The notes: generated by a model from the letters alone, not told the origin. 64,000 nt of DNA from an uncultured Actinomycetes bacterium (GCA_963709345.1 CAVPVX010000002.1:192001-256000); one strand, 5' to 3'. Shown: positions 1 to 31,671, counted from the stretch's first letter. Translations and numbers: made by a program.

Positions 1-295
1 AGGCGCCGGCCATATTGGCGGCCTCGTCCTTGACGAAGATGCGGGCGCCCTTGCCGGGCGCGCTCATGGAGCGCACCACGTCGGTGAGGTTCTTGAGCTC
101 AAGCAGCGGCGTGTTGCCCACGCCGGCCTTGGTCTGGATGGCGACGATGTCCTGCAGGCTGTAGCCGTGCGCCTCCATCATGCCCTCGTAGTCGAAGGCG
201 ATGGGGCTCTGCTCGAACACGCTGTAGTCCATGCCGAGCGCCTTGCCCATGATCTCGCCGCGGCGCGCCATGATGGCGTCGAACCTGGTGGCCAT
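1..295 (-). CDS. ortB: 2-amino-4-ketopentanoate thiolase beta subunit (5' part; runs off window)
   Basis: Own translation MATRFDAIMARRGEIMGKALGMDYSVFEQSPIAFDYEGMM...GVGNTPLLEL...GKGARIFVKDEAAN resembles the OrtB N-terminus; TGATG overlap with ortA. Confidence 0.88.
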   Translation of the reverse strand, partial: MATRFDAIMARRGEIMGKALGMDYSVFEQSPIAFDYEGMMEAHGYSLQDIVAIQTKAGVGNTPLLELKNLTDVVRSMSAPGKGARIFVKDEAANMAGA

Positions 296-20784: not shown

Positions 20785-21945
20785 TCAGCTCCCCTCTCCC
20801 TCGAGCAGCGCCCGGCGCTTCTCCTCGACGATGGCGACGTCGGCGTCGAACGCCGCGACGAAGAGGTCGACGCCTTCCCGCCGCAGCCGCGCGCCCACGT
20901 CCTCCATGTCGATGCCCAGGTGGCTCAGCTCGCGCAGCACGCGATGCGCCTCGTCCAGGTGACGATCGACGGTGGGCGCGACTGTCCCGTGGTCCTTGAA
21001 CGCCTTCCACGTGGCCTCGGGCAGCGTGTTCACGGTGTACTCGCCGATCAGCTCGTCCACGTACAGGGTGTCGGGGTACGACGGATCCTTGACGCCGGTG
21101 CTCGCCCACAGCACGCGCTGGATCTTGGCGCCCGACGCCGCGATCAGCTGCCATTCGCGGCCGTTGAGGTAGCTGCGAAAGCGCTCGTAGACGACCTTGG
21201 CGTTGGCGACGCCCGCTCGGCGCTTGAGCCCCTGGATGCGCCGCCGCTCCGCCACGTCGGCGGCGGCCTCCGCCCGCTCGTCGAGCAGCTTGTCGACGAG
21301 CACGTCCACACGCGAGACGAACAGGCTCGCGACAGACGACGTGGCGCGGATCGTGAGGTCGTGCGAGAGCCGATACTCAAGCGCCTCCAGATAGACGTCG
21401 GCGACGGCCTCGTACTGGGTCAGCGAGAAAAGCAGGGTGATGTTGATGTTCAGCCCGTCCTGCAGGCAACGGAGCACGGCGGGCACGCCTTCGCGCGTCC
21501 CGGGGATCTTGATCAGGACGTTGGGCCTGTCGACGGCGGCGAACAGGCGCTGCGCCTCGGCGACGGTCTTCGCCGTGTCGTACGCGAGATGGGGGGAGAC
21601 TTCGATGCTCACGAACCCATCCGCGCCCCCGCTCCCCAGATAGACCGGTGCCAACACGTCGCAGGCGGCGCGGACGTCGTCAATGGCGAGCCTGTCGAGG
21701 ATATCCGCGGCGTCCAGGCCCTGATGAGCCAGACTCAGGATCTCCTCGTCGTACGCGTTCCCGCCGCCGATGGCCCGCTCGAAGATCGCGGGGTTCGTGG
21801 TGACACCGCCAAGGCCGTCGCGCTCCACCATCTTCCGGAGCCCGCCGCGGGCGATGAGCGCCCGGCTGATGTAGTCGAACCAGGGGCTTTGACCCAGACG
21901 GTTCAGTTCGGCGAGCCGGCTCTCGGCAGGCGGCACGGCGATCAC
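20785..21945 (-). CDS. tal: transaldolase
   Basis: GQSPWFD, GVTTNPAIF, VSIEVSP, IKIPGT, NITLLFS, SLFVSRVD, LWASTGVK. Confidence 0.93.
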   Translation of the reverse strand: MIAVPPAESRLAELNRLGQSPWFDYISRALIARGGLRKMVERDGLGGVTTNPAIFERAIGGGNAYDEEILSLAHQGLDAADILDRLAIDDVRAACDVLAPVYLGSGGADGFVSIEVSPHLAYDTAKTVAEAQRLFAAVDRPNVLIKIPGTREGVPAVLRCLQDGLNINITLLFSLTQYEAVADVYLEALEYRLSHDLTIRATSSVASLFVSRVDVLVDKLLDERAEAAADVAERRRIQGLKRRAGVANAKVVYERFRSYLNGREWQLIAASGAKIQRVLWASTGVKDPSYPDTLYVDELIGEYTVNTLPEATWKAFKDHGTVAPTVDRHLDEAHRVLRELSHLGIDMEDVGARLRREGVDLFVAAFDADVAIVEEKRRALLEGEGS

Positions 21946-22194
21946 GCTCCTTTCGCCGGCGCGGTACCGGCGCCGGCGTCATCGTTGTCCTGAGCGTCAC
22001 GAGGGTCGCGCGGCGCCACGGGCGCGCGGCGCCGAACCTCGACACAGCATCGGACTAGTCAATTCCCATCGGGCCGGGTTTTCAAGGCCCGGAGGCGGAT
22101 GGGCCGGCGGGCGCGACCCTCCGGGGTCCGGCCCGCCCCTCCCGGGACTGTGGGTCGGGAGATCATCCGGCCCCGACCTCGCCCGCTCGCCGCC

Positions 22195-22554
22195 TCAGTA
22201 GTCACCGGCCTCCGGCACGATGCAGATGAAGGAGAGTGACTCATCGTCCGCGGCGCGGAACTGGTGCTCGTGGCCGGCCGGCACGTAAGCGTACGCGCCC
22301 GCCTCGAGCGGCTTGTCCTCGCCGTCGAGAAAGAGGACCCCACGTCCGGCGGCGACGAAGTTGATGTGCGGCCAGTCGTGGGTGTGCTTGGGCGTGTGCC
22401 CGCCTGGCTCGACGTCGAACAGCCGCATCACCCAGCCGTCCCAGCCCTCCTCGGGCGAGACCAGCACTCGCTTCACAACGCCCTCGATGCCCTCTCCGGC
22501 CATCGGCGTCGCCGTCACGTCGCCCTTCGTGCCCACCACCATGCGGTCGCTCAT
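22195..22554 (-). CDS. cupin 2 domain protein
   Basis: MR.F.V.PGG.TP.H.H.W.H, VP....HQF, FIC.VP. Confidence 0.8.
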   Translation of the reverse strand: MSDRMVVGTKGDVTATPMAGEGIEGVVKRVLVSPEEGWDGWVMRLFDVEPGGHTPKHTHDWPHINFVAAGRGVLFLDGEDKPLEAGAYAYVPAGHEHQFRAADDESLSFICIVPEAGDY

Positions 22555-22663
22555 GCGCGCTCCTCGTCGTCGTCGCCGCCGCCTCGTGCTCGCAGGGACT
22601 CTACCCGTTCCGGGACCGCCCGCAAGCGCGCCGGCCTCGCCGCGGCGCAGGCGCTCGCGCCGC

Positions 22664-23323
22664 TCACGGCGCCCCGGCCCGCCTCCCGGCGCCTTCGTCC
22701 CTGCTCGCCAGATACACCCTGGCGGGGAGGACGCGCGTCCGGCCGCGGTCCATCGGTACGCTGAAGGCGAGGTCTCGGGCCGCCGTGAAGCCGTTGTCTT
22801 CGAGCCACCCACGCACCTGCCCGGCGCTGTGGCGGTACATCGTCACCGGCCCGTCCTCTCCCGTGTGCTCGGCCCCCACGACGACCTCCGCTGCTTCATC
22901 CTCCCGCCGGTCACCGACCACGAAGACGAACCGGCCGCCCCCGCGAAGGATGCGGGCGGCCTCCGAGAACACCGGCGACAGGTCGCCGATGAAGTCGAGC
23001 ACCCCGACGCACACGATGTGGTCGAAGGTCCCCGTCCCGAACGGATACGGCGGGCTGGTCAGGTCGTGCCGCTCGAGATGCGTGAACTCCTTGGCGCGGC
23101 ACACGTCGAGCATCTCCTGCGCGGCGTCCATCCCTGCCGCTCTCAGCCCGGCCCTGCGGAAGAGGGCGGCCGCCCGTCCGGTGCCTATCCCCAGATCGAG
23201 GATCGATTCGTCCGGCCGGATGGAATCGAAGGCCAGGCCGAACGCGACCTCCGGACCGAAACAGCCGGTCGCCTACGCCTCCTCGTCGTAGGTGTCGGCG
23301 ACGGCGCGCTGCTGATCGTCCAT
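22664..23323 (-). pseudogene. class I SAM methyltransferase with in-frame TAG at codon 17
   Basis: GGAGGGAG RBS, ATG 23323; motif I ILDLGIGTG lies upstream of the ORF-track start; single TAG at 23273-23275. Confidence 0.7.
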
Positions 23324-23371
23324 CGTTCTCCCTCCGTCGCTGTCAGGCGAGGGAATCGTCGAGGCGCCGCT

Positions 23372-23700
23372 TCAGCGGGGTGCGGCGGCGCTCTCCCGGA
23401 CCCTGAACTCGACCATCCGCCGGATCAGATCCTCGGGCATCGGCCTGTCGAGATGGAACCGCACCGAGCCTTCTGCGCTCTTGTACGGTTTGAGTTCCTC
23501 CTGGAAGGCCGCGATCCCGCTCGGCCCGGGATAGAACCCGACGTGCCGATCGTGCCCGGCGAAGTGCACGAGGTGCCTGCCGATGATGGCAGCCGAGAAC
23601 TCCTCGCGAGCGGAACGCTCGAAGGCAGCATCGTAGCCGCCGAAGTAGTACGGCAGAACACTCCACCGAGCGTCCACTTCAGCCCCCCCGCACAGGGATA
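23372..23700 (-). pseudogene. DUF1801/YdhG-like C-terminal half behind an unrelated N-terminus (chimeric cassette)
   Basis: LVHFA...HVGFYPG..GI.AF.EELK.YK...GSVRF.LD.PMP.DLI. Confidence 0.55.
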
Positions 23701-23712
23701 GAGTCGGGCGCC

Positions 23713-23797
23713 CCCTAACGCCTCGCGCATGACCTGCGCGCTGAGAGCTCGGAGTATACCGCAAGGCTCGGGCGCCTCAGGTTGATGCGCTGTTTCG
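23713..23797 (-). repeat. attC-like site A (one end degenerate)
   Basis: Plus strand CCCTAAC...GCGCATGACCTG...CAGGTTGATGCGC-TGTTTCG, with an extra G in the right arm. Confidence 0.65.
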
Positions 23798-23854
23798 CTG
23801 AGCGACCGCCAATTCGGTCTGTCGTGAGACTCCCGCTGCATCCGGCAGGCAGAC

Positions 23855-24322
23855 CTAGATCCCACAGGCCAGCCCCTCCAGAGCTTGCCTCAGGGTGGCC
23901 GTCTGTTCTGCATCGGCGGCGCCCGTACCTCGCCAGACGATCGTCCCGTCGGGATCGAGCAGCATCAGGTGGATGGTCTCCCGCGACGGCAGTCCCAGCT
24001 GGCGCGCTAGTGACCCGAGGTCCGTGTATGCGGTCAGAGTGTGCCTACGGGCGTCCGGATCGCCGATACCGGCGCGCATACCGCCGTCGATGAACCCGCG
24101 TACGGGCAGGTACAGTCGCGACAGAGCCGGGACCTCCCAGACCGAGAGCTCGTGGCAGCGCGCCTCGAGCGCCTTGAGTTCCGGCTCCCACGTCTCGATG
24201 AGATCCTGGTGCCACCGTTGGAAGGCGAGCATGACGATGCGGGGCCCTGGCGGCAGATCCCCCGGGAGCCGGACTTCGCGGCCCTCAAGGTCGTGAGCGG
24301 TGATGGACGGAAACTGGGACAC
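23855..24322 (-). CDS. thioredoxin-fold / ATP10-like hypothetical cassette protein
   Basis: FP......L.G....LP.DL, AFQRW.Q..I.TW, FIDGGMR.GI. Confidence 0.6.
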   Translation of the reverse strand: MSQFPSITAHDLEGREVRLPGDLPPGPRIVMLAFQRWHQDLIETWEPELKALEARCHELSVWEVPALSRLYLPVRGFIDGGMRAGIGDPDARRHTLTAYTDLGSLARQLGLPSRETIHLMLLDPDGTIVWRGTGAADAEQTATLRQALEGLACGI

Positions 24323-24375
24323 CGGATCTCCTTCGCTAGCGCTGCATACCCAGTTCGAACAGTTCCGACTGTCTC

Positions 24376-24461
24376 ACCGAACGCACCGCGGAAAGCTGCG
24401 AGCGCCGCGGCCCCATCTTGCCGCGACGCATCGGCGAGCCAGCTTGATCCGCTTGTTCGCC
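24376..24461 (-). repeat. attC-like site B
   Basis: Minus strand: yoeB TGA immediately followed by GGCGAAC-AAGCGGATCAAGCTG...CAGCTTTCCGC...GTTCGGT. Confidence 0.75.
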
Positions 24462-24725
24462 TCACCCGTAATGGGTCCACATCCTGAGCACTTTGACGAT
24501 GCGCTCGTCGGCGAGCACCTGATACACGAGGCGGTGCTGGATGTTGATGCGGCGCGAGTAGGCGCCGCTGAGGTCGCCGACGAGCTTCTCGAACGGCGGC
24601 GGCGACTGGAACGGGTCGGCCTCGAGGACCACGAGCAGTTCCTGCGCCTTCGGCTTGAGGCCGGCCGCGGCGAGCTTCTTCGCGTCCTTGCGCGCCTGCT
24701 TCGTGAAGAGCAGCCGCCAGCTCAC
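24462..24725 (-). CDS. Txe/YoeB family toxin
   Basis: PF..PPPFEKLVGDL.G.YSRRINIQHRLVY.V....VKVLRMWTHY. Confidence 0.92.
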   Translation of the reverse strand: MSWRLLFTKQARKDAKKLAAAGLKPKAQELLVVLEADPFQSPPPFEKLVGDLSGAYSRRINIQHRLVYQVLADERIVKVLRMWTHYG

Positions 24726-24964
24726 CAGTCGATCTCGCCCTCGAGCTCATCGACGGGAACCGCCATGCCCTCCAGGATGGACTCGCGCATGCCGGGGATC
24801 GAGACGAGGTAGAGCGTCTCCTGCACGGCGCGCCAGTCGTCCTCCGAGACGAGCACGGCGTTGCTGCGCTTGCCGGTGATCTGCACCGGCTCGTGCGAAC
24901 GTGCGACGTCGTCGAGGAGCTGGTAGAGCTGCTTGCGCGCTTCAGTGGCGCTCATGGTCGTCAT
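24722..24964 (-). CDS. Phd/YefM family antitoxin
   Basis: ATEAR..LY.LLD.V..SHEPV.ITGKR.NAVL.SE.DW...QETLYL. Confidence 0.92.
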   Translation of the reverse strand: MTTMSATEARKQLYQLLDDVARSHEPVQITGKRSNAVLVSEDDWRAVQETLYLVSIPGMRESILEGMAVPVDELEGEIDW

Positions 24965-24980
24965 CGCGGACCTCCCGTTA

Positions 24981-25019
24981 CGTACGGGAAAGCGTACGGT
25001 AAAGGACGCTGGATGTCAA
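24981..25019 (-). promoter_or_regulatory. yefM-yoeB promoter with operator repeats
   Basis: TTGACA-17 nt-TACGCT overlapped by two CGTACG palindromes. Confidence 0.65.
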
Positions 25020-25033
25020 GTGCACAGGGTTGT

Positions 25034-25119
25034 GGCGAACGTGTTTGCGCTTCACTCGCGATCTTGCGCTCCCATTATGCGTCAACCATGCACGAGTCGA
25101 GTGGAAGCGCGGGTTGGGC
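25034..25119 (-). repeat. attC-like site C
   Basis: Minus strand GCCCAAC-CC-GCGCTTCCACTCG...CGAGTGAAGCGC...GTTCGCC; extra C in the L'' arm. Confidence 0.8.
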
Positions 25120-25168
25120 AGTGGGATCCGACAAACTCGAGTTGGCGCAGATGCAACAATTCGGAGTC

Positions 25169-25540
25169 CTAGACGTGCTGGTCAATCAGAATCGGGTTTC
25201 CGTCTGGATCCAGGATCATCAAGCTGGTAGGCCCTTCACTAGACTCGTCAGCCTCGCTTGCGAGTTCGAGCCCCCGTGCTCTCAGCTGTGACTGGATCTC
25301 ACGGACATCCGTGAACGAGTCGAGAGGTTTCGCGTCAGTGCTCCATCCCGGATTGAAGGTCAGGGTGTTGCGCTCGAACATGCCCTCGAACAGACCGATC
25401 ACCGTGCTTCCGTTCCTCATGATCAGCCACTTGTCTGCGGCATCGCCGCCGAAGGCGGTGAATCCTAGCTTCTCGTAGAACTCCCGAGAAGTGTCGATAT
25501 CGCTCACAGACAGACTGACGGAGAACGCACCGAGCTCCAT
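25169..25540 (-). CDS. VOC/glyoxalase family protein
   Basis: MELGAFSVSL.V.DI..S..FYEKLGF, IGLF.GMFE.N.LTFNPGW, DPDGNPILIDQH. Confidence 0.88.
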   Translation of the reverse strand: MELGAFSVSLSVSDIDTSREFYEKLGFTAFGGDAADKWLIMRNGSTVIGLFEGMFERNTLTFNPGWSTDAKPLDSFTDVREIQSQLRARGLELASEADESSEGPTSLMILDPDGNPILIDQHV

Positions 25541-25636
25541 GTGCTGCTCCTCTCGTTCCGACGACCGGCAGGGGCGCGACCTGGGGCATGATACTGCCCG
25601 CTCATGGTCTGCGTGTCTCAGAGAATCTTCCCATCT

Positions 25637-25722
25637 GCCCAACGCACCGCGGATAGGCTGCGAGCGCCGCGGCTTCGTCTTGCCGCGACGCTTTGGCGAG
25701 CCAGCTGATCCGCTTGTTGGAC
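25637..25722 (-). repeat. attC-like site D
   Basis: Minus strand GTCCAAC-AAGCGGATCAGCTG...GTTGGGC, fits RYYYAAC / GTTRRRY. Confidence 0.82.
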
Positions 25723-25735
25723 AGACCCACCACCC

Positions 25736-26039
25736 TCAGGCAGCGGTCCCTGACCACGGCTTGATGCGTGCGAGCTGATCGGTCAGCGCCTCCTCGGCGA
25801 CCTCGGTGTCGTGGGCCGCCTGGGCGCGCAGCCAGTAGCCGTTGGAGAGGCCGAAGAAGCGGCACAGGCGCAGGTCGGTATCGGCCGTGATCGCGCGCCG
25901 GCCGGCGACGATCTCACCGATGCGCTGCGCCGGCACGCCGATCTCCTTGGCGAGCCGGTACTGGGTGATGCCCATGGGCAGCGAGGAACTCCTCGAGCAG
26001 CAGCTCGCCGGGTGTCACGGGCTTGAGCTTCTCGTCCAT
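25736..26039 (-). pseudogene. higA: HigA antitoxin with an apparent +1 frameshift near codon 20
   Basis: MDEKLKPVTPGELLLEEFL then PMGITQYRLAKEIGVPAQRI in another frame; ATG-to-stop length is 304 nt. Confidence 0.75.
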
Positions 26040-26050
26040 CGCTCGCGCTC

Positions 26051-26329
26051 CTAGTGGTAGTCCACGATCTCGACGTCTTCGGCGCCGCCGGCGGTCCAGC
26101 GGAAGCAGACGCGGTACTGGTCGTTGATGCGGATGCTGTGCTGGCCGGCGCGGTCGCCTCTGAGCGCCTCGAGCCGGTTGCCCGGCGGCACCCGCAAGTC
26201 GTCCAGCCGCCCGGCGATCTCGAGCTGGCGCAGCTTGCGCCGCGCGACCGTCTCGATGCTCGCGAACCGCTTCACGCGCCGGCCGCCGGCCAGCTTCTCG
26301 GTGTCGCCGTCCTTGAACGAGACGATCAT
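26051..26329 (-). CDS. higB: HigB (RelE-like) toxin
   Basis: MI.SF....TE.L, DLRVPPGNRLEAL.GDR.GQHSIRINDQYRVCFRW, VEIVDYH. Confidence 0.92.
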   Translation of the reverse strand: MIVSFKDGDTEKLAGGRRVKRFASIETVARRKLRQLEIAGRLDDLRVPPGNRLEALRGDRAGQHSIRINDQYRVCFRWTAGGAEDVEIVDYH

Positions 26330-26334
26330 GCCGA

Positions 26335-26363
26335 ATAGTAACGTTACGCGTTAGTAACGTCAA
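26335..26363 (-). promoter_or_regulatory. higBA promoter, probably leaderless
   Basis: TTGACG-17 nt-TACTAT ending 5 nt before ATG; TAGTAACGT repeats as likely operator. Confidence 0.65.
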
Positions 26364-26401
26364 GCATGATTACCGGTGATCGACCGCCACGCCTTGGTTC
26401 T

Positions 26402-26491
26402 GTCCAACGCACGCACCGCGCATGAGCAGACGCGGACGACCTGCCGCCGTGCGGCAGGCCTGCTGGCGTTCTGCTCTTGCGCTTGTCAGAT
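26402..26491 (-). repeat. attC-like site E
   Basis: Plus strand GTCCAAC...GCGCATGAGCAGA...TCTGCTCTTGCGC-TTGTCAGAT, 5 nt from the toxin stop. Confidence 0.7.
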
Positions 26492-26496
26492 CCCAC

Positions 26497-26793
26497 CTAC
26501 GGTGCGATCTCGCCTTCGTCGAAGTCCCTTGCAGCGTGCCGAACAGCGGCGATCTCGGCCACATCGACGCTGCGACGATACATCACGCGGTAGGGCTCCA
26601 CGATGATCTCGCGAATCTCCTCACGCTGCAGCTCCGGCACGATGCGGCCCGAGTCCGGATAGTCGGCCAGGGACTTGACCCGCTCGAGCAGGCGCTCAAG
26701 CCAACGATGCGCGGCGGCGGGATCGTCGGCGGCGATGTAGGCCAGCGCGTCGTCGACCTGTCCATCGGCCAGCGGAGACCAAGTGAGCCTCAC
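26497..26793 (-). CDS. RelE/ParE family toxin
   Basis: W...A......YIA.D.P.AA, L..YP.SGR.VPE....IRE.I..PYRV.Y, I.AV.H.AR. Confidence 0.88.
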   Translation of the reverse strand: MRLTWSPLADGQVDDALAYIAADDPAAAHRWLERLLERVKSLADYPDSGRIVPELQREEIREIIVEPYRVMYRRSVDVAEIAAVRHAARDFDEGEIAP

Positions 26794-27074
26794 TTCAGGT
26801 GGCGCTCACGCAGGCGCCGCTCGACGGCCTCGTGGGGGATGCCCATGCCGGCGTCGAGTTGGGCCTCGGCAGTGCGGATGTCACGGATCACCGCGACCTC
26901 GTCGACCAAGGCCTCGTAGGCCTCGACGTCGAGCAGCACCGCTGCGCTGCGGCCGTGCTGGGTGAGGATCACGGGACGCTTGGTCTTGTGGACCTGCTCG
27001 AGTACGGCCGAGGTGTGGGAGCGGAATTCGGTCACGGCACGCACATCGACTGAGGGGCGCAATACTGCCATCAT
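26790..27074 (-). CDS. Phd/YefM family antitoxin
   Basis: DVR.VTEFR......L.QV..TKRPVILTQHGRSAAVLLDV..YE. Confidence 0.88.
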   Translation of the reverse strand: MMAVLRPSVDVRAVTEFRSHTSAVLEQVHKTKRPVILTQHGRSAAVLLDVEAYEALVDEVAVIRDIRTAEAQLDAGMGIPHEAVERRLRERHLK

Positions 27075-27141
27075 GGCCTCCGGTTAGGTACGCAATGACG
27101 TGCAGTATAGCGTATCGAACCCCTCGGCGCTACGGGGTTGG

Positions 27142-27228
27142 GTCCAACGTATCAGGCATAAGTCGCACCGCACGCGCTTCTCTTCCGCAGTCTACCTGCG
27201 GGGAGTCAGGTTGATGCCTTTGTTGGAC
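27142..27228 (-). repeat. attC-like site F
   Basis: Minus strand GTCCAAC-AAAGGCATCAACCTGAC...TTATGCCT...GTTGGAC, fully complementary end boxes. Confidence 0.82.
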
Positions 27229-27261
27229 GGACCCGACGAGCTGCGGATTCGTGCTCGCGCC

Positions 27262-27478
27262 CTAACCCGGCGCGATGTCGAGTGCAAGACATCCTCACGG
27301 ACGCCGCGTTTCGAGTAGAGCGCGATAGCAGGCTCGTCGCCGAGATCGGCCGGAACGAATACGACCCAGCGCCGCGCTCCGCTGCGATGTGCCGAAGCTG
27401 CTCGATCAGCGACGTCGCTATGCCGCGCCGCCGGTGTGACGCGATGTACGCCAGGTCGTCGATGTAGATCTCGCGCGC
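27262..27478 (-). pseudogene. AAC(3)-I-like GNAT acetyltransferase C-terminal remnant
   Basis: With two frameshifts reads REIYIDDLA..SHRRRGIATSLI..L..IAAERGA/VVFV.ADLGDEPAIALYSKRGVREDVLH/DI. Confidence 0.7.
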
Positions 27479-27778
27479 GGAGCGCGTGAAGAGGACCCTG
27501 CGGCTCACGGCCTGCCGAGCAGCTCGTCGGCCTCGGCGAGCACGTCGGCGAGCGCGTGACCCGTGCCGGCTCGATCTCGGCCTCGCCGCGGGCGAGCAGG
27601 CGCAGGATCTCAAGTTCATGCTGCGTGCGCTCGTAGGCCCTCGCGCTGACGACGACGGCGGCCGCGCGCCGCGCTGCGTGATGAAGACCGGCTGCTGCGA
27701 GTCGGATGCGCGCCTGATGATGCCCGAGGCGTCCTGACGCAAATCAGTGATGGGGACGATGTCTGGTACTGATGCCAT
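27479..27778 (-). pseudogene. frameshifted Phd/YefM antitoxin plus first ~11 codons of a ParE-like toxin
   Basis: PDIVPITDLRQDA...PVFITQRG, then LRLLARGEAEI in another frame; VSRRVLFTRSA joined to the GNAT remnant. Confidence 0.65.
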
Positions 27779-27846
27779 TTACGATACCTCCTCTGCTACT
27801 GGCAACGGTACCACCAACGCACCCTCGCGAACAGTGAGACGGCTGT

Positions 27847-27943
27847 GACTAACGCGATTGCGCATCAGCTGCGAGGCGCGGCGATCCGCTTCGGCCCGAG
27901 TCTTCCGCTCGAGCGCCGAGTCTGCTGGATGCGCTGGTCAGGC
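27847..27943 (-). repeat. attC-like site G
   Basis: Plus strand GACTAAC...GCGCATCAGC...GCTGGATGCGC-TGGTCAGGC. Confidence 0.72.
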
Positions 27944-28000
27944 GTGCGCCTATTGTGTGGTAGCATTCATGTGCTACTGCGATTCTAGGGAAGGAGAGCG

Positions 28001-28228
28001 ATGACTCGCGGACTGAAGCTCCGCCAGGCCGGCGGTTCGATCAGCGCCACGCTCCCGAAGGATATGGCCGAGCGCCTGCACCTCGAGGCTGGCGACACGG
28101 TGCTTGCCGTGGAGACCGAGCGCGGCATCCTGCTCACGCCCTACGACCCTGAGGTCGAGGAGACAATCGCCATCGCCGGCAAGGTGGCCAGGCGCTACCG
28201 CAACGCACTCCGCGAGCTGGCCAAGTAG
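28001..28228 (+). CDS. AbrB/MazE-family antitoxin (partner of Doc)
   Basis: KLRQ.GGS...TLPK.M..RL.L..GD.V, GILLTPYDP, RYRNALRELAK; AAGGAG RBS. Confidence 0.85.
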   Translation: MTRGLKLRQAGGSISATLPKDMAERLHLEAGDTVLAVETERGILLTPYDPEVEETIAIAGKVARRYRNALRELAK

Positions 28229-28231
28229 CCG

Positions 28232-28648
28232 GTGGCAAGGCGCACGGGGGAGCCACGCTGGGTCGACCGCCTGGTCGTCGAGGCCGTGCAGTTCGACCTC
28301 ATCCGCGAGCACGGCGGCATGCCCGGCCTGCGCGACGAGCACGGGCTCGAGGCGGCTCTCGCCCGACCGCAGCAGTGGCGCGCCTATCGCCCCGACGCAG
28401 ACCTCGCCGAGCTGGCGGCGGCCTACGGACACGGCCTCGCGACCGGGCACCCGTTCCACGACGGCAACAAGCGCATCGCCTTCGTCACCACGGCAGTCTT
28501 CCTCGAGCTCAACGGAGTCACGCTCGAGGCGGACGAAGCAGAGGTCGTCACGGTGATACTCAGCCTGGCTGCCGGTGAGACGACGGAAGACCAGCTTGCC
28601 TCCTGGGTGAGGACGAGGACCGCAACGGCTGGGCAAGCGTCCGGCTAA
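28232..28648 (+). CDS. Doc/Fic family toxin
   Basis: HPFHDGNKR Doc motif, GLRD..LE.ALARP; TAA stop lies inside attC H. Confidence 0.9.
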   Translation: MARRTGEPRWVDRLVVEAVQFDLIREHGGMPGLRDEHGLEAALARPQQWRAYRPDADLAELAAAYGHGLATGHPFHDGNKRIAFVTTAVFLELNGVTLEADEAEVVTVILSLAAGETTEDQLASWVRTRTATAGQASG

Positions 28649-28740
28649 CGTTGAGCGGGGGAGCTGCCGGGCGCAGCGCTCCGCCTGCAATCTACTCTAC
28701 CGTTGCGAGCGCCCGGGTCTGCTCAATCCGCTGGCTAGCC
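28643..28740 (-). repeat. attC-like site H
   Basis: Minus strand GGCTAGC-CAGCGGATTGAGCAGAC...GTTAGCC. Confidence 0.68.
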
Positions 28741-28749
28741 AGGCGGCCT

Positions 28750-29208
28750 CTAGGGCTTCGAAGCCCTTTCCTCAAGACTGGCCTTGTGCGACTGCAGGAA
28801 CGCTCGCCCGATGTTCGAACTGCCGAAGGTCCTGTAGAAGAAGCCCAGCAAGCCTGGGGCTTCGACATCGCTGATGGTGACGCGGTGATCGACTCCGCCG
28901 GCGCTCGCCGTGAACTCGTCGAGGAAGTGCGACCGTGCCTTGACCTTCGATCCGGCCTGGTAATCCTCATCGAGCTCGACCGTCACGCTCTCGGGCTCGA
29001 CACGTACGGTGATCCCCGAGCGCCGCATCAGCCCCTCGTTGGTCCGTATGACCACGAAGTCAGAGCCCTGCTCCACTAGCTCTACACTCGTCATGCCCGG
29101 CATGCGGCTGACGACGTCGACGTAGAACTCGCCGAGGTTCTCGAACGCCTGCTTCACTTGCTGGATGCTGCACTCGATCTGGTTGGAGTCCTCAAACCAA
29201 GCTGACAT
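28750..29208 (-). CDS. SRPBCC/START-like hypothetical cassette protein
   Basis: GGAGG RBS, ~152 aa with helix-grip-like pattern; flanked by attC-like sites. Confidence 0.55.
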   Translation of the reverse strand: MSAWFEDSNQIECSIQQVKQAFENLGEFYVDVVSRMPGMTSVELVEQGSDFVVIRTNEGLMRRSGITVRVEPESVTVELDEDYQAGSKVKARSHFLDEFTASAGGVDHRVTISDVEAPGLLGFFYRTFGSSNIGRAFLQSHKASLEERASKP

Positions 29209-29264
29209 GACTCGTCCTCCCACACTGTAGGAAGTGCCGTTTCAAGACCGCCGTGCCTCGCCCT

Positions 29265-29340
29265 GGCTAACGTTCTTGCGCATCAGCTGGGAGGCGCAGC
29301 GATGCTTCCCTGCCTGATTCTACCTGTCGAGCGCCGAGGA
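29265..29340 (-). repeat. partial attC-like site I (one arm deleted)
   Basis: GGCTAAC...GCGCATCAGCTG.GAGGCGC...GAGCGCCGAG resembles site G but lacks the second arm. Confidence 0.55.
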
Positions 29341-29378
29341 CTCACGCTCCGCGGCGGCGTCGAAGCGCAGGACGCGGC

Positions 29379-29600
29379 TCATCCGCGGCGGGCACGCGCC
29401 CTGGCGAGGACCTCGTCGGCGGGAGAGGTGGCAGCGCCGGCGTCGATCTCGGCGTCGCGGCGCGCCGCCTCAGCGAGCCAGAGCTGTTCGACCTCGGCCT
29501 CGGAGAGTTCGTCGAGGCTGTCGAGCAGCCGGTGGGCGAGATGGGCCCGGCCTTGGGGGTCGAGGGTGAGCGCCTCGCGCATGAGTTCGTCGATGGTCAC
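29379..29600 (-). CDS. addiction-module antitoxin; partner toxin truncated after ~14 codons (MSRVLRFDAAAERE)
   Basis: AL.L....RA.LA..LL.SL......E..W..EA.RR..EI..G......EV...R pattern; ATGA-coupled toxin start runs into attC I. Confidence 0.75.
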   Translation of the reverse strand: MTIDELMREALTLDPQGRAHLAHRLLDSLDELSEAEVEQLWLAEAARRDAEIDAGAATSPADEVLARARARRG

Positions 29601-29686
29601 GCCTGCCACCTCGCTTCCGCACTGCGCCGACACCTGCATTGTACCGCCGCGCCCAGACGGCTGACAGATGACGATGGGGGTGTTGC

Positions 29687-29770
29687 GGCTAACGTTCGGA
29701 GCATGACCCGCGAACCGCGGCCCGCACGCGCCTTCATTTTCATGGTACTACGTGCCCGCTGCCGGTCGTG
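29687..29770 (-). repeat. partial attC-like site J (right end of array)
   Basis: GGCTAACGTTCGGAGCATGACCCGCG matches the left-arm pattern of the other sites; distal arm poor. Confidence 0.45.
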
Positions 29771-29906
29771 ACCTGCACGCCCCCGGGCGGGCCGTGCGGT
29801 CCTGCGCCGCGAATCACCCGTTCCGGGTGAGGCGACGGCGGCAGGGCCGCGCTACGTTCAGTGGGACGCATCACCGCGCCGGGAAGGCACGCGAAAGGAG
29901 AGACCC

Positions 29907-30275
29907 ATGCAACGCAGGTCCGTCATCGCGACCGTTGCCCTCATCCTGCTACTGGCGGGACTCGCGGCGGCCGGGTCGTCCATCGGGTCGGCGCCCTCCC
30001 CCTCGGAGGCGACCGGCCTCCCGCGGCCGGCGTCGGCCCTCATGCCCGAGCAGCTGCAGACGAGTTCAGCGCTCCCGGGCAGCGAGGCCGTTGCGTTCGC
30101 CCCCGGCGGCATGAGCGGCGACTTCGCCGCGCGTCGGCTCGCCGACGCCGGCGCGCTCCGGGCGCCGTCGATCTACATCCCGTCGGACAGATGGCGGTTC
30201 CGGCTGCCCGGCGCCCGCGCGCACCGTCTTCTGACACCCGCCACCAGGATGGCCGCGGCAAGGTACGCCGCGTGA
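29907..30275 (+). CDS. hypothetical exported protein
   Basis: AAAGGAG RBS, signal-peptide-like N-terminus. Confidence 0.5.
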   Translation: MQRRSVIATVALILLLAGLAAAGSSIGSAPSPSEATGLPRPASALMPEQLQTSSALPGSEAVAFAPGGMSGDFAARRLADAGALRAPSIYIPSDRWRFRLPGARAHRLLTPATRMAAARYAA

Positions 30276-30285
30276 GCAGGAGTCG

Positions 30286-31671
30286 CTAGACCTTCTTCAC
30301 GCCGGCGATCAGCTTGCCGACCACGTCCTGGGCGTCGCCGTAGACCATGCGCGTGTTGTCCGCGTAGAACAGCTTGTTCTCGATGCCGGCGAACCCGGCG
30401 CCGCGGCCGCGCTTGATCACGAACGCTTGTTGGGCCTTGTCGACGTCGAGGATCGGCATGCCGTAGATGGGGCTGCCGGGATCGTCGCGGGCGGCGGGGT
30501 TGACGACGTCGTTGGCGCCGATGACGATGGCCGCGTCGGCCGTGGGGAACTCGCCGTTGATCTCGTCCAGGTCGTAGATCATGTCGTAGGGCACGCCGGC
30601 CTCGGCGAGCAGGACGTTCATGTGCCCGGGCATGCGGCCGGCGACCGGGTGAATGGCGAACTTCACCTGGATGCCGCGCTCTCCGAGCAGCTTGGCCAGC
30701 TCCCAGACCTTGTGCTGCGCCTGGGCGACGGCCATGCCGTAGCCGGGCACGATGATCACCTTCTGCGCGAACGCGAGAGTGACGGCGGCGTCGTCCGGGC
30801 TCGACTCCTTCATCGCGCCCTCGATGGCCTCCAGTTCCTGCCCACCCTTGGCGCCGAAGCCTGCGAAGAGGACGTTGCCGATGGAGCGGTTCATGGCCTT
30901 GGCCATCATCTGCGTGAGCAGGGTGCCGGCGGCGCCGACTACGATACCGGCGATGATCAACGCGCCGTTGCCGAGCACGTAGCCCTCGAGGCCGACGGCC
31001 AGACCCGTGAGGGCGTTGTAGAGGCTGATGACCACCGGCATGTCGGCGCCGCCGATGGGCAGCGTCATGAGCACGCCGTAGAGCAGCGCGAGCGCGAAGA
31101 AGAGCGCCAGCACGAGGCCCTCGTTGCCGCCCATGTTGCCGGTGTGTTGCAGGGCCGCGATGACGGCCAGCGCGACCGCGGCCGCCAGGACCAGCAGGTT
31201 GAGGACGTTCTGGCCCGGGAAGAGGAACGACTTCTTGATGATCCCCTGCAGCTTGGCGAAGGCGATCATGCTGCCGCTGAAGCTGACGGAGCCGATGAGG
31301 GCGCCGATGATGCCGAGCACGGCGAAGCTCGCCGGCATGGTCTCCGGCTTCATGAACTCGACGGCGGCGATCAGCGCTGCCGCGCCGCCGCCCATGCCGT
31401 TGTAGATCGCGACCATCTGCGGCATGTCGGTCATCGCGACCTTGCGCGCCGCGACGTAGGCGATCGCGGCGCCGATGGCAATCGCTATCGTCATCAGCAG
31501 GTAGTTGCTCATCTCCGGCGTCGCGAAGGTGATCGCCGTGGCGACCAGCATGCCGACGCCGGCCCAGATGATGCCGCGCCGCGCCGTGCGCGGCGAGCTC
31601 ATGCTCTTGAGGCCGAGGATGAAGAGAACGGCGGCGGCGATGTAGGCGATCTGGATCAGGTCAGCGCGCAT
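30286..31671 (-). CDS. pntB: NAD(P) transhydrogenase beta subunit
   Basis: MPQMVA.YNG.GG, PIGGADMPVVIS, PGYGMAVAQAQ, HPVAGRMPGHMNVLLAEA. Confidence 0.95.
   Translation of the reverse strand: MRADLIQIAYIAAAVLFILGLKSMSSPRTARRGIIWAGVGMLVATAITFATPEMSNYLLMTIAIAIGAAIAYVAARKVAMTDMPQMVAIYNGMGGGAAALIAAVEFMKPETMPASFAVLGIIGALIGSVSFSGSMIAFAKLQGIIKKSFLFPGQNVLNLLVLAAAVALAVIAALQHTGNMGGNEGLVLALFFALALLYGVLMTLPIGGADMPVVISLYNALTGLAVGLEGYVLGNGALIIAGIVVGAAGTLLTQMMAKAMNRSIGNVLFAGFGAKGGQELEAIEGAMKESSPDDAAVTLAFAQKVIIVPGYGMAVAQAQHKVWELAKLLGERGIQVKFAIHPVAGRMPGHMNVLLAEAGVPYDMIYDLDEINGEFPTADAAIVIGANDVVNPAARDDPGSPIYGMPILDVDKAQQAFVIKRGRGAGFAGIENKLFYADNTRMVYGDAQDVVGKLIAGVKKV

Follow-up and report, generated by a model that had tools for sequence, protein, structure and literature searches.

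Among described integrons, those closest to the locus reported here are the sedentary chromosomal integrons with an inverted integrase gene, a grouping reportedly made by Boucher in 2007, the superintegron of Vibrio cholerae, in which toxin-antitoxin cassettes stabilise the array, and the attC-site clusters that have no integron integrase (CALINs). The inverted-integrase group and the routes by which CALINs originate are described in the part of Cury et al. 2016 (PMC4889954) drawn on here, where Actinobacteria appear without complete integrons and with only In0 elements. The corresponding portion of a 2022 update of the CALIN survey gives for Actinobacteria 'a few CALIN', one In0 and no complete integron. 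Actinobacteriota are named without detail among the phyla with integrons detected in the relevant section of PMC8618304, and a passage of PMC13323075 speaks of their 'virtual absence' in the Actinomycetota of a permafrost site. We found no description of native Thermoleophilia integrons in the full-text literature, supplementary tables and subscription papers being outside the scope of that search; surveys of metagenome-assembled genomes (MAGs), or their supplementary tables, may already list them. Here we analyse a 64,000-nt stretch of DNA (GCA_963709345.1 CAVPVX010000002.1:192001-256000, the window) from an uncultured Actinomycetes bacterium, which holds an array of attC sites and gene cassettes next to pntB.

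The source genome (3.11 Mb in 11 contigs, 69-70% GC, 98% complete) carries in this window a 6.4-kb array of ten small cassettes, mostly toxin-antitoxin pairs, between pentose-phosphate genes and pntAB. With a probability of roughly 0.9, we read the array as a CALIN at pntB-tal, the resident site of an inverted-type sedentary chromosomal integron in a genus of Thermoleophilia, from which the integrase gene (intI) and the attI site have been deleted.

Results

The attC sites of the window and their family

Eight full attC sites of 86-98 nt were found by sequence reading and arm alignment on the minus strand of the window at 23.3-29.7 kb, together with two half sites, S8 and S9 (Table 1). A previous inspection of the same DNA, made by a model without database searches (the sequence-only reading), had described eight imperfect palindromes of about 85-100 bp plus two half sites and had taken them for attC architecture. 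The palindromes are there as described, and the assignment to attC is borne out by structure and covariation and by an exclusive, co-oriented association with IntI in other genomes. The 3′ end reads cGTT[A/G/C]G in every full site, and R′ starts with GTT in all eight full sites as well as in the two half sites. The last three bases of the 5′ box are AAC in five of the eight (S1, S2, S10, S3 and S5), GAC in S4 and S6, and AGC in S7, while the R/Y consensus positions (R′′ RYYYAAC, R′ GTTRRRY) are followed only loosely, as in GTTCGCC. All sites are co-oriented and placed at the 3′ ends of cassettes, with central regions that vary in length and sequence, and six of eight start 1-57 nt past a minus-strand stop codon. 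Core-to-core spacing is 422-796 nt, with one full site per unit of 603-796 nt.

In the RNAalifold consensus of the eight sites, an R box of 5 bp (..AAC with GTT..) is separated by an unpaired spacer from an L box of 5+6 bp (11 bp in total). The spacer between R and L is asymmetric, with a length of 2 nt in the 5′ half and 6 nt in the 3′ half, and the consensus bulge measures 2 nt in the 5′ (L′′) arm as against 1 nt in the 3′ (L′) arm. Compensatory changes were seen in 9 of 16 pairs. The canonical extrahelical bases of attC are G and T. When the bottom strands were folded singly, extra bases stood on the L′′ arm in five of eight sites (S1, S2, S10, S6 and S7); S3 and S4 were symmetric and S5 was ambiguous.

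A covariance model, R1, was trained on these eight sites only. In a search of the source genome in which 150 of 4214 first-look candidates were scored, 22 matches were obtained at E≤1, namely the 8 training sites, 12 others with E≤0.002 clustered at 5 places, and 2 that were weak. Outside the array, the 64-kb window gave nothing below E=0.1. Four of these sites lie directly downstream of an intI gene on another contig, C7, and on its strand (C7:429769-432000). The others are grouped in small clusters on C7 (764.9-772.5 kb), C5 and C11, apart from one isolated copy on C6. These extra copies of the family are located at C7:764920-772525, C5:11716-13154, C11:246070-246793 and C6:78436-78541. In the first cluster both strands carry sites, and a tRNA-Arg and a weak match to tyrosine recombinases (L008) lie close by.

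A search for IntI proteins in contigs of one genome per species gave 204 relatives, of which 80 were kept, and R1 was run on 24 of those loci (387 kb). It returned 119 matches at E≤0.01 in 14 loci, all of them labelled Thermoleophilia or Actinomycetota. All 119 share the strand of intI and lie downstream of it; the 10-kb upstream flanks had none. The ten loci without a match were seven from other phyla and three from Actinomycetota with less than 1.4 kb of downstream sequence. The window sites score 56-89 bits with R1, in the range of sites from the intact integrons of relatives.

Base pairing was assessed in the best 150 of 183 R1 matches at E≤1e-6, all of them non-training sites from relatives and from other loci of the same genome, in an alignment that was fitted to R1, so that the counts lean towards the model. 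In these best 150 of 183 sites, pairing was kept in 96.4% of cells, compared with 18-43% when the partners were slid; double-sided changes occurred in 232 cells, compared with 83 in shuffles (0 of 500 shuffles reached the observed number), and 8 of the 11 pairs of the L helix had changed on both sides. The AAC and GTT positions were kept in 146-150 of the 150. Since the R1 matches in relatives lie downstream of intI, are co-oriented and keep their pairing, the palindromes of the window are the attC family of the integrons of this Thermoleophilia lineage.

The pntB-tal locus and the loss of intI and attI

In 12 genomes of the same genus, pntB is followed on its own strand, 94-2182 nt downstream, by an intI that is whole or broken, and 5-37 kb separate this intI from tal. 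R1 gave 174 matches over 16 loci, co-oriented except for one weak overlap on the opposite strand; L089 had 26 of them within 20 kb, and L095 had 32 within the same length. The site is empty in four genomes, where pntB and tal are 0.6-1.3 kb apart with 0 R1 matches, and in other genomes a pntB-tal distance of 2.6-7 kb goes with none or one match. Genomes G034, G026 and G033 combine an empty pntB-tal site with an IntI away from pntB. Directly upstream of intI, MAG loci that bear the label Thermoleophilia or Actinomycetota also carry pntAB, at 84-94% identity to the genes of the window. Because intI follows pntB in 12 genomes and the arrays reach tal, the window holds the resident integron site of the genus. 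The lineage shows a fixed site, long arrays (>19 attC sites) and similar attC sites, as sedentary integrons do.

By blastn, the homology between the window and its relatives extends from pntB to 29755-29810 and ends 60-85 nt before the start of the relatives' intI. Tested as a complete integron, the window locus failed: neither intI nor attI lies between pntB and the first core, nor is there an intI pseudogene. An intI and an attI adjoining the array were seen at the C7 locus and, at the pntB-tal locus, in the 12 relatives. Since the homology stops short of intI, and S9 is without the conserved attI, a deletion took intI, attI and probably some cassettes, and ended inside an attC site. The reading of half site S9 as a decayed attI was rejected, because S9 and the conserved attI present at 10 relatives' loci and on C7 have nothing in common beyond the GTTAGCC core.

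A second scar lies at the next cassette, c1. The relative's locus L025 carries this cassette at 95% identity, there complete with a ParE-like toxin gene and an attC that has both arms; the match to the window breaks off about 40 nt inside the toxin gene and is taken up again midway through attC. Half site S8 is, on this comparison, a second deletion scar, with the toxin gene of c1 and the R′′-L′′ half of its attC lost. Damage to pntB-linked intI was also observed in relatives, as an in-frame stop, a split gene or a C-terminal fragment (G021:C4:258598-259551, G001:C8:231492-232444, G019:C14, G012:C3 and G018:C128); integrase loss thus recurs in the genus, several relatives carrying a damaged copy.

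A complete integron elsewhere in the genome

A single protein of the whole genome exceeded the curated cut-off of the integron-integrase profile TIGR02249 (C7:428081-429022, 464 bits compared with 265). In the part of contig C2 that forms the window, nothing matched this profile, which also detects Xer-like recombinases. The alignment of the C7 protein with VchIntIA (2a3v) covers residues 3-312 of 328 at E 2e-92 without a long gap, through the integron-specific segment ALARKYPKAPWEWRWQWVFP, and the protein shows the catalytic-motif stretches GLRLME, HTLRHS, LGHKD and MIYAHV. Judged by its sequence, the C7 protein is a true integron integrase. It belongs to a complete integron (Table 1) whose cassettes hold a dienelactone hydrolase (DLH), a HicA-type pair, two unknowns and MazE-Doc.

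The attI-like stretch that follows the intI stop codon on C7 ends in GTTAGCC, and its architecture is kept in relatives. It consists of two TTAC(G/A)CAGA-like motifs about 35 nt apart and then ...GAAA.GCA with a GTTRG core, after the intI stop, and is shared by the loci L089, L091-L095, L104, L010, L022 and L025 and by L001:2488-2560. The two motifs look like integrase-binding repeats.

On its 777-kb contig, the C7 intI comes just after tRNA-Ser(cga), with a thioredoxin-like gene also upstream, and core genes follow the five cassettes. A direct repeat of the tRNA-Ser 3′ end bounding the integron was not found (no match of at least 13 nt within 52 kb). The interval at this tRNA-Ser measures 1.1-18.7 kb in eight relatives with both flanks on one contig; seven of these were also searched for IntI, which lay elsewhere or was not found. 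The C7 IntI is 89% identical to the IntI of L009, a locus whose PntB is 84% identical to the window's, and 68-72% identical to those of L041, L026, L030 and L033, whose PntB is 93-94% identical. IntI identity is thus incongruent with PntB identity, which speaks for an acquired C7 platform and against one moved from pntB, but is no proof of it.

With two attC sites or more and no intI within 4 kb as the definition of a CALIN, the window array qualifies by its eight full sites, the only IntI of the genome being on C7. Its CALIN status, as given by the sequence-only reading, is therefore upheld, since the window has no IntI and the nearest is on another contig. The actinobacterial host named by that reading agrees with the relatives found in records labelled Thermoleophilia or Actinomycetota (88-89% identity for IntI, 84-94% for pntAB). 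An integrase-less array had been thought to be inserted between core genes; its position between tal and pntB stands, and the insertion is replaced by the remnant of a resident integron. The locus varies across relatives in arrays, empty sites and cassette content, which accords with the same reading. The whole-genome search agreed with it that no IntI lies in the window, and found in addition a complete IntI with attI and array on C7.

Mobility of the cassettes

The cassettes are, by all appearances, mobile units. Six of the ten window cassettes recur at other ranks in the arrays of other genomes, with 77-95% nucleotide identity, and the homology begins at cassette nt 1-7 (the TT of the GTT core). 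Cassette c1 sits 7-15 kb from intI in L025, L030 and L090. Nucleotides 1-734 of c3 are 90% identical to the first cassette after intI in L022, and a second MazE-Doc copy, 87% identical, is present in the C7 array of the same genome. For c4, only nt 1-413 match cassettes of other loci (85-90% identity), and c5 is 78% identical to a cassette of L016. The whole of c6 (nt 1-765) is found at 87-90% identity in L094, L102, L093 and L027, and c8 is matched from nt 1 at 86% identity by the cassette that directly follows the intI of L016 and by one in L030. The nearest relative, whose Tal is 96% identical, has c6, c10 and the methyltransferase remnant in common with the window, and not c7-c9. No match to c7 was found in the relatives' loci; in soil-metagenome contigs of runs X2 and X3 it is matched over 25036/25045-25646, about core to core, followed by divergence, at 90-99% likeness that gives weak support.

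The L027 contig is titled 'Deltaproteobacteria bacterium', its IntI is 72% identical to the C7 IntI, and its copy of c6 is 90% identical to that of the window. This suggests either a mis-binned actinobacterial contig or a cassette transfer.

Cassette contents and flanking genes

The features of the window and of the C7 integron are listed in Table 1. No antibiotic-resistance genes were found in the cassette cargo of the window. PADLOC, run on ten cassette proteins, matched Doc alone, to candidate families only, and found no known defence systems. The open reading frame (ORF) of c2 had neither a Pfam nor a PADLOC match, and the DUF1801 match of c10 reached 25.1 bits, under the Pfam cut-off of 27.2. 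Among the loci compared, c10 is common only to that of the nearest relative (L102, 89% identity). The array bins (23500-29999) have a GC content of 0.64-0.71 apart from that of c7 (0.57), against about 0.69-0.70 in the genome contigs. Inverted within their cassette, the genes of c3 are coded on the plus strand, and the stop codon TAA of Doc (28646-28648) lies inside the complement of the GTTAGCC core of S7 (window 28643-28649). Therefore, the first three bases of the cassette supply the stop codon of a gene on the other strand.

At the distal end of the array, the methyltransferase gene is matched by its Pfam profile from position 24 only, its N-terminal part being in another frame, and among the compared loci the gene is present only in L102. 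The left flank comprises a pgi-like gene, tal and the cupin gene. Its part with the cupin gene (about query nt 520-960 of the reverse complement of 23131-21946) is kept in relatives, including those with an empty site. At the array head, the interval that separates pntB from the array holds an antisense, plus-strand ORF of 122 aa (29907-30275), which has high GC at third codon positions and whose N-terminus is hydrophobic; its DNA is kept in relatives between pntB and intI, and it had no Pfam match.

Table 1. Features of the array, its flanks and the complete integron on C7 (attC sites are given from R′′ start to R′ end)
Feature	Position	Strand	Content or evidence
Left flank: tal, cupin gene	tal 20785-21945; cupin 22195-22812	-	Pfam
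Broken class-I methyltransferase gene	22664-23341	-	Pfam Methyltransf_11 (partial); between array and cupin gene
Possible third remnant	~23348-23342		R′′-like only; by eye, weak
Cassette c10 (array end)	23342-23718	-	DUF1801-like gene, stop codon at 23372, then truncated R′′-like remnant
attC S1	23798-23713	-	70.2 bits with R1
Cassette c9	23719-24381	-	155-aa ORF 23855-24322, without family match; attC S1
attC S2	24461-24376	-	both arms
Cassette c8	24382-25039	-	YefM antitoxin 24722-24964, YoeB/ParE-like toxin 24462-24725 (Pfam); attC S2
attC S10	25119-25034	-	both arms
Cassette c7	25040-25642	-	glyoxalase/VOC-family gene 25169-25542 (Pfam); attC S10
attC S3	25722-25637	-	both arms
Cassette c6	25643-26407	-	HigB toxin 26051-26329, HTH antitoxin 25736-25975 (Pfam); attC S3
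attC S4	26491-26402	-	both arms
Cassette c5	26408-27147	-	Phd antitoxin 26790-27074, ParE toxin 26497-26793 (Pfam); attC S4
attC S5	27228-27142	-	both arms
Cassette c4	27148-27852	-	broken fusion, Phd-like N-terminus and GNAT fragment 27206-27778 (Pfam, partial); attC S5
attC S6	27943-27847	-	both arms
Cassette c3	27853-28648	-	MazE 28001-28228, Doc/Fic 28232-28648 (Pfam), both plus strand; attC S6
attC S7	28740-28643	-	64.8 bits with R1
Cassette c2	28649-29270	-	157-aa ORF 28750-29223; attC S7
Half site S8	GTTAGCC core, G at 29271	-	3′ arm only
Cassette c1	29271-29692	-	lone Unstab_antitox antitoxin 29379-29639 (Pfam PF09720); half site S8
Half site S9	GTTAGCC core 29693-29687	-	L′-R′ arm only; no 5′ arm found
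Deletion junction with half attC S9	29687-29754	-	intI, attI and probably some cassettes gone
Spacer pntB to intI, conserved	29755-30285	.	blastn homology to relatives
pntB (right flank)	30286-31671	-	Pfam PNTB, E 3e-176
Complete integron (loci L001, L108)	G000:C7:427692-432640		intI C7:428003-429067, attI-like site, four R1 attC sites, five cassettes

Host and distribution

The nearest relatives of the genome's IntI (88-89% identity) come from records titled 'uncultured Thermoleophilia bacterium', and many more are labelled Thermoleophilia or Actinomycetota, Thermoleophilia being a class of the phylum Actinomycetota. In a sample of 401 genomes of the class, searched at E≤1e-60, IntI was found in 46 (the window's genome counted), 43 of them over the cut-off. 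Without the window's genome, it was present in 33 of 62 genomes of the window's family, 11 of 47 of a second and 1 of 21 of a third, and no match was found in the other nine families sampled (e.g. 0 of 90 and 0 of 86). A quick IntI tree was made from 56 of 81 rows, the 25 left out being short or containing stops. In this tree, 17 of the 18 rows labelled Actinomycetota group with the genome's IntI at an SH-aLRT of 92, which is not strong, and the neighbours of this group are Thermodesulfobacteriota, Spirochaetota and Cyanobacteriota.

Discussion

According to our reading, the resident integron has the order pntB, intI, attI and cassettes on one strand. One deletion removed intI, attI and probably some cassettes, leaving half attC S9 at the array head, and a second one left half site S8. 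Each intact attC is predicted to fold as a single bottom strand (the plus strand of the window) into a hairpin of R box and L box with extra L′′ bases. On such substrates, the C7 IntI could act in trans, excising window cassettes by attC x attC recombination, and the excised cassettes could be reinserted at the C7 attI. Loss of the array is probably counteracted by the five toxin-antitoxin cassettes or remnants.

Several observations weigh against this reading. The fold energies of the single bottom strands are better than those of shuffled sequences by a modest margin only (z = -3.0, -2.8, -2.2, -2.1, -1.7, -1.5, -0.1 and +0.2), and the attC sites of C7 score lower with R1 than those of the window (33-64 compared with 56-89 bits). 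The C7 IntI may not be the native partner of the window array, because it is closer to the IntI of a more distant relative than to the pntB-linked type. Mobilisation of the window array in trans is inferred, and the array may be decaying, because two cassettes are broken and intI is gone. As for the host, the WhiB family (PF02467), an independent actinobacterial marker, was not found in the genome at E≤1e-5, and the actinobacterial label therefore rests on the titles of related MAG records. Among public contigs (four runs, 90% likeness), no listed piece spans the junction between pntB and S9. The best public run holds 0.20 of the stretch's sampled words, and the pieces are short, with single cassettes, probably from other organisms; 'joints' with short sides of 20-27 nt were not used. 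The public runs neither confirm nor question the assembly.

The most serious rival explanation, which we consider unlikely, takes the array for a dead fossil, with true attC sites that no integrase in the cell recombines and with cassettes in decay. It is in line with the deletion of intI and attI, with the broken cassettes c1 and c4 and the methyltransferase pseudogene at the array end, and with the subclade of the genome's only IntI, which is 68-72% identical to the pntB-linked type of the closest relatives. However, 8 of the 10 sites retain both arms and the consensus pairs, their scores of 56-89 bits fall within the range of relatives' intact integrons, the MazE-Doc cassette is common to the C7 array and the window at 87% identity, and both IntI subclades adjoin sites that R1 detects. 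A second rival is an error of assembly, by which repeats broke or mis-joined contigs and hid an array that is truly contiguous with the C7 intI; we think this very improbable. The genome is in 11 contigs, attC repeats are hard to assemble, and the public contigs gave no check of the junction, but this junction lies outside the repeat, where a unique spacer common to relatives runs to about 29755 and is followed by the half site. Moreover, the C7 intI is flanked by tRNA-Ser and the thioredoxin-like gene upstream and by core genes downstream on its 777-kb contig, and G034, G026 and G033 likewise carry an IntI away from pntB together with an empty pntB-tal site.

That the palindromes are ordinary intergenic repeats unrelated to integrons, such as repetitive extragenic palindromes (REP-like elements), miniature inverted-repeat transposable elements (MITEs) or terminators, has next to no chance of being right. 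GC-rich hairpins after genes with modest folding z-scores might be expected of such repeats, but a terminator search found one terminator-like site, compared with 2.3 expected, and no T-tracts, and the one Rfam match at E≤1 over 22000-30500 was a miRNA family hit by chance (E 0.45). In addition, all 119 matches in IntI loci are co-oriented and downstream of intI, and the homology between genomes starts at the GTT core.

Beyond the CALIN at the resident pntB-tal site, we see about an even chance that Thermoleophilia have their own old, largely vertical clade of inverted-integrase sedentary chromosomal integrons, anchored in the present genus at pntB-tal and the first native lineage in Actinomycetota, for which surveys give none, and that the present genome underwent a platform swap, in which intI-attI was deleted, a second platform of another subclade was acquired at a tRNA-Ser hot spot, and the array is now served in trans. 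The supposed barrier to integrons is not phylum-wide, and in these soil actinobacteria one can study, in a natural setting, which factors allow or hinder integrons among high-GC Gram-positive lineages. The integrons of this family bring arrays of dozens of cassettes at a fixed chromosomal site, and the window shows, at the level of base pairs, how a CALIN can be born by the deletion of intI and attI. Elements of this kind are known; what makes this one interesting is its host phylum and the clarity with which it records CALIN formation.

With the superintegron of Vibrio cholerae (VchIntIA, V. cholerae repeat (VCR) sites), the lineage shares an alignable IntI, a homogeneous attC family and many toxin-antitoxin cassettes. 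In contrast, the Vibrio intI is divergent from its array, and the attC sites here belong to another sequence family, 86-98 nt long, with an asymmetric R-L spacer (2 nt 5′, 6 nt 3′).

The inverted-integrase sedentary chromosomal integrons, of the Treponema denticola type in the part of PMC4889954 considered here, offer a second comparison. In the relatives and on C7, intI is co-directional with the cassettes and attI follows the 3′ end of intI, and the relatives have long arrays and similar attC sites at a position that is fixed within the genus. IntI also groups next to sequences of Spirochaetota, Cyanobacteriota and Thermodesulfobacteriota in the 56-row tree. Unlike these systems, the host belongs to Actinomycetota, class Thermoleophilia, and the window copy is without an integrase; the Actinomycetota IntI form a group of their own (17 of 18 rows), although its SH-aLRT of 92 is not strong.

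As it now stands, the window array resembles the CALINs of Cury et al. 2016 (PMC4889954), as the available part of that survey presents them: at least two clustered attC sites without intI nearby, a cargo of mostly unknown or toxin-antitoxin genes with no antibiotic-resistance genes, and an IntI elsewhere in the genome, as for about half of the CALINs surveyed there. It differs from them in its host phylum, Actinomycetota, and in that its origin, the deletion of intI and attI from a resident integron, can be read directly from the locus.

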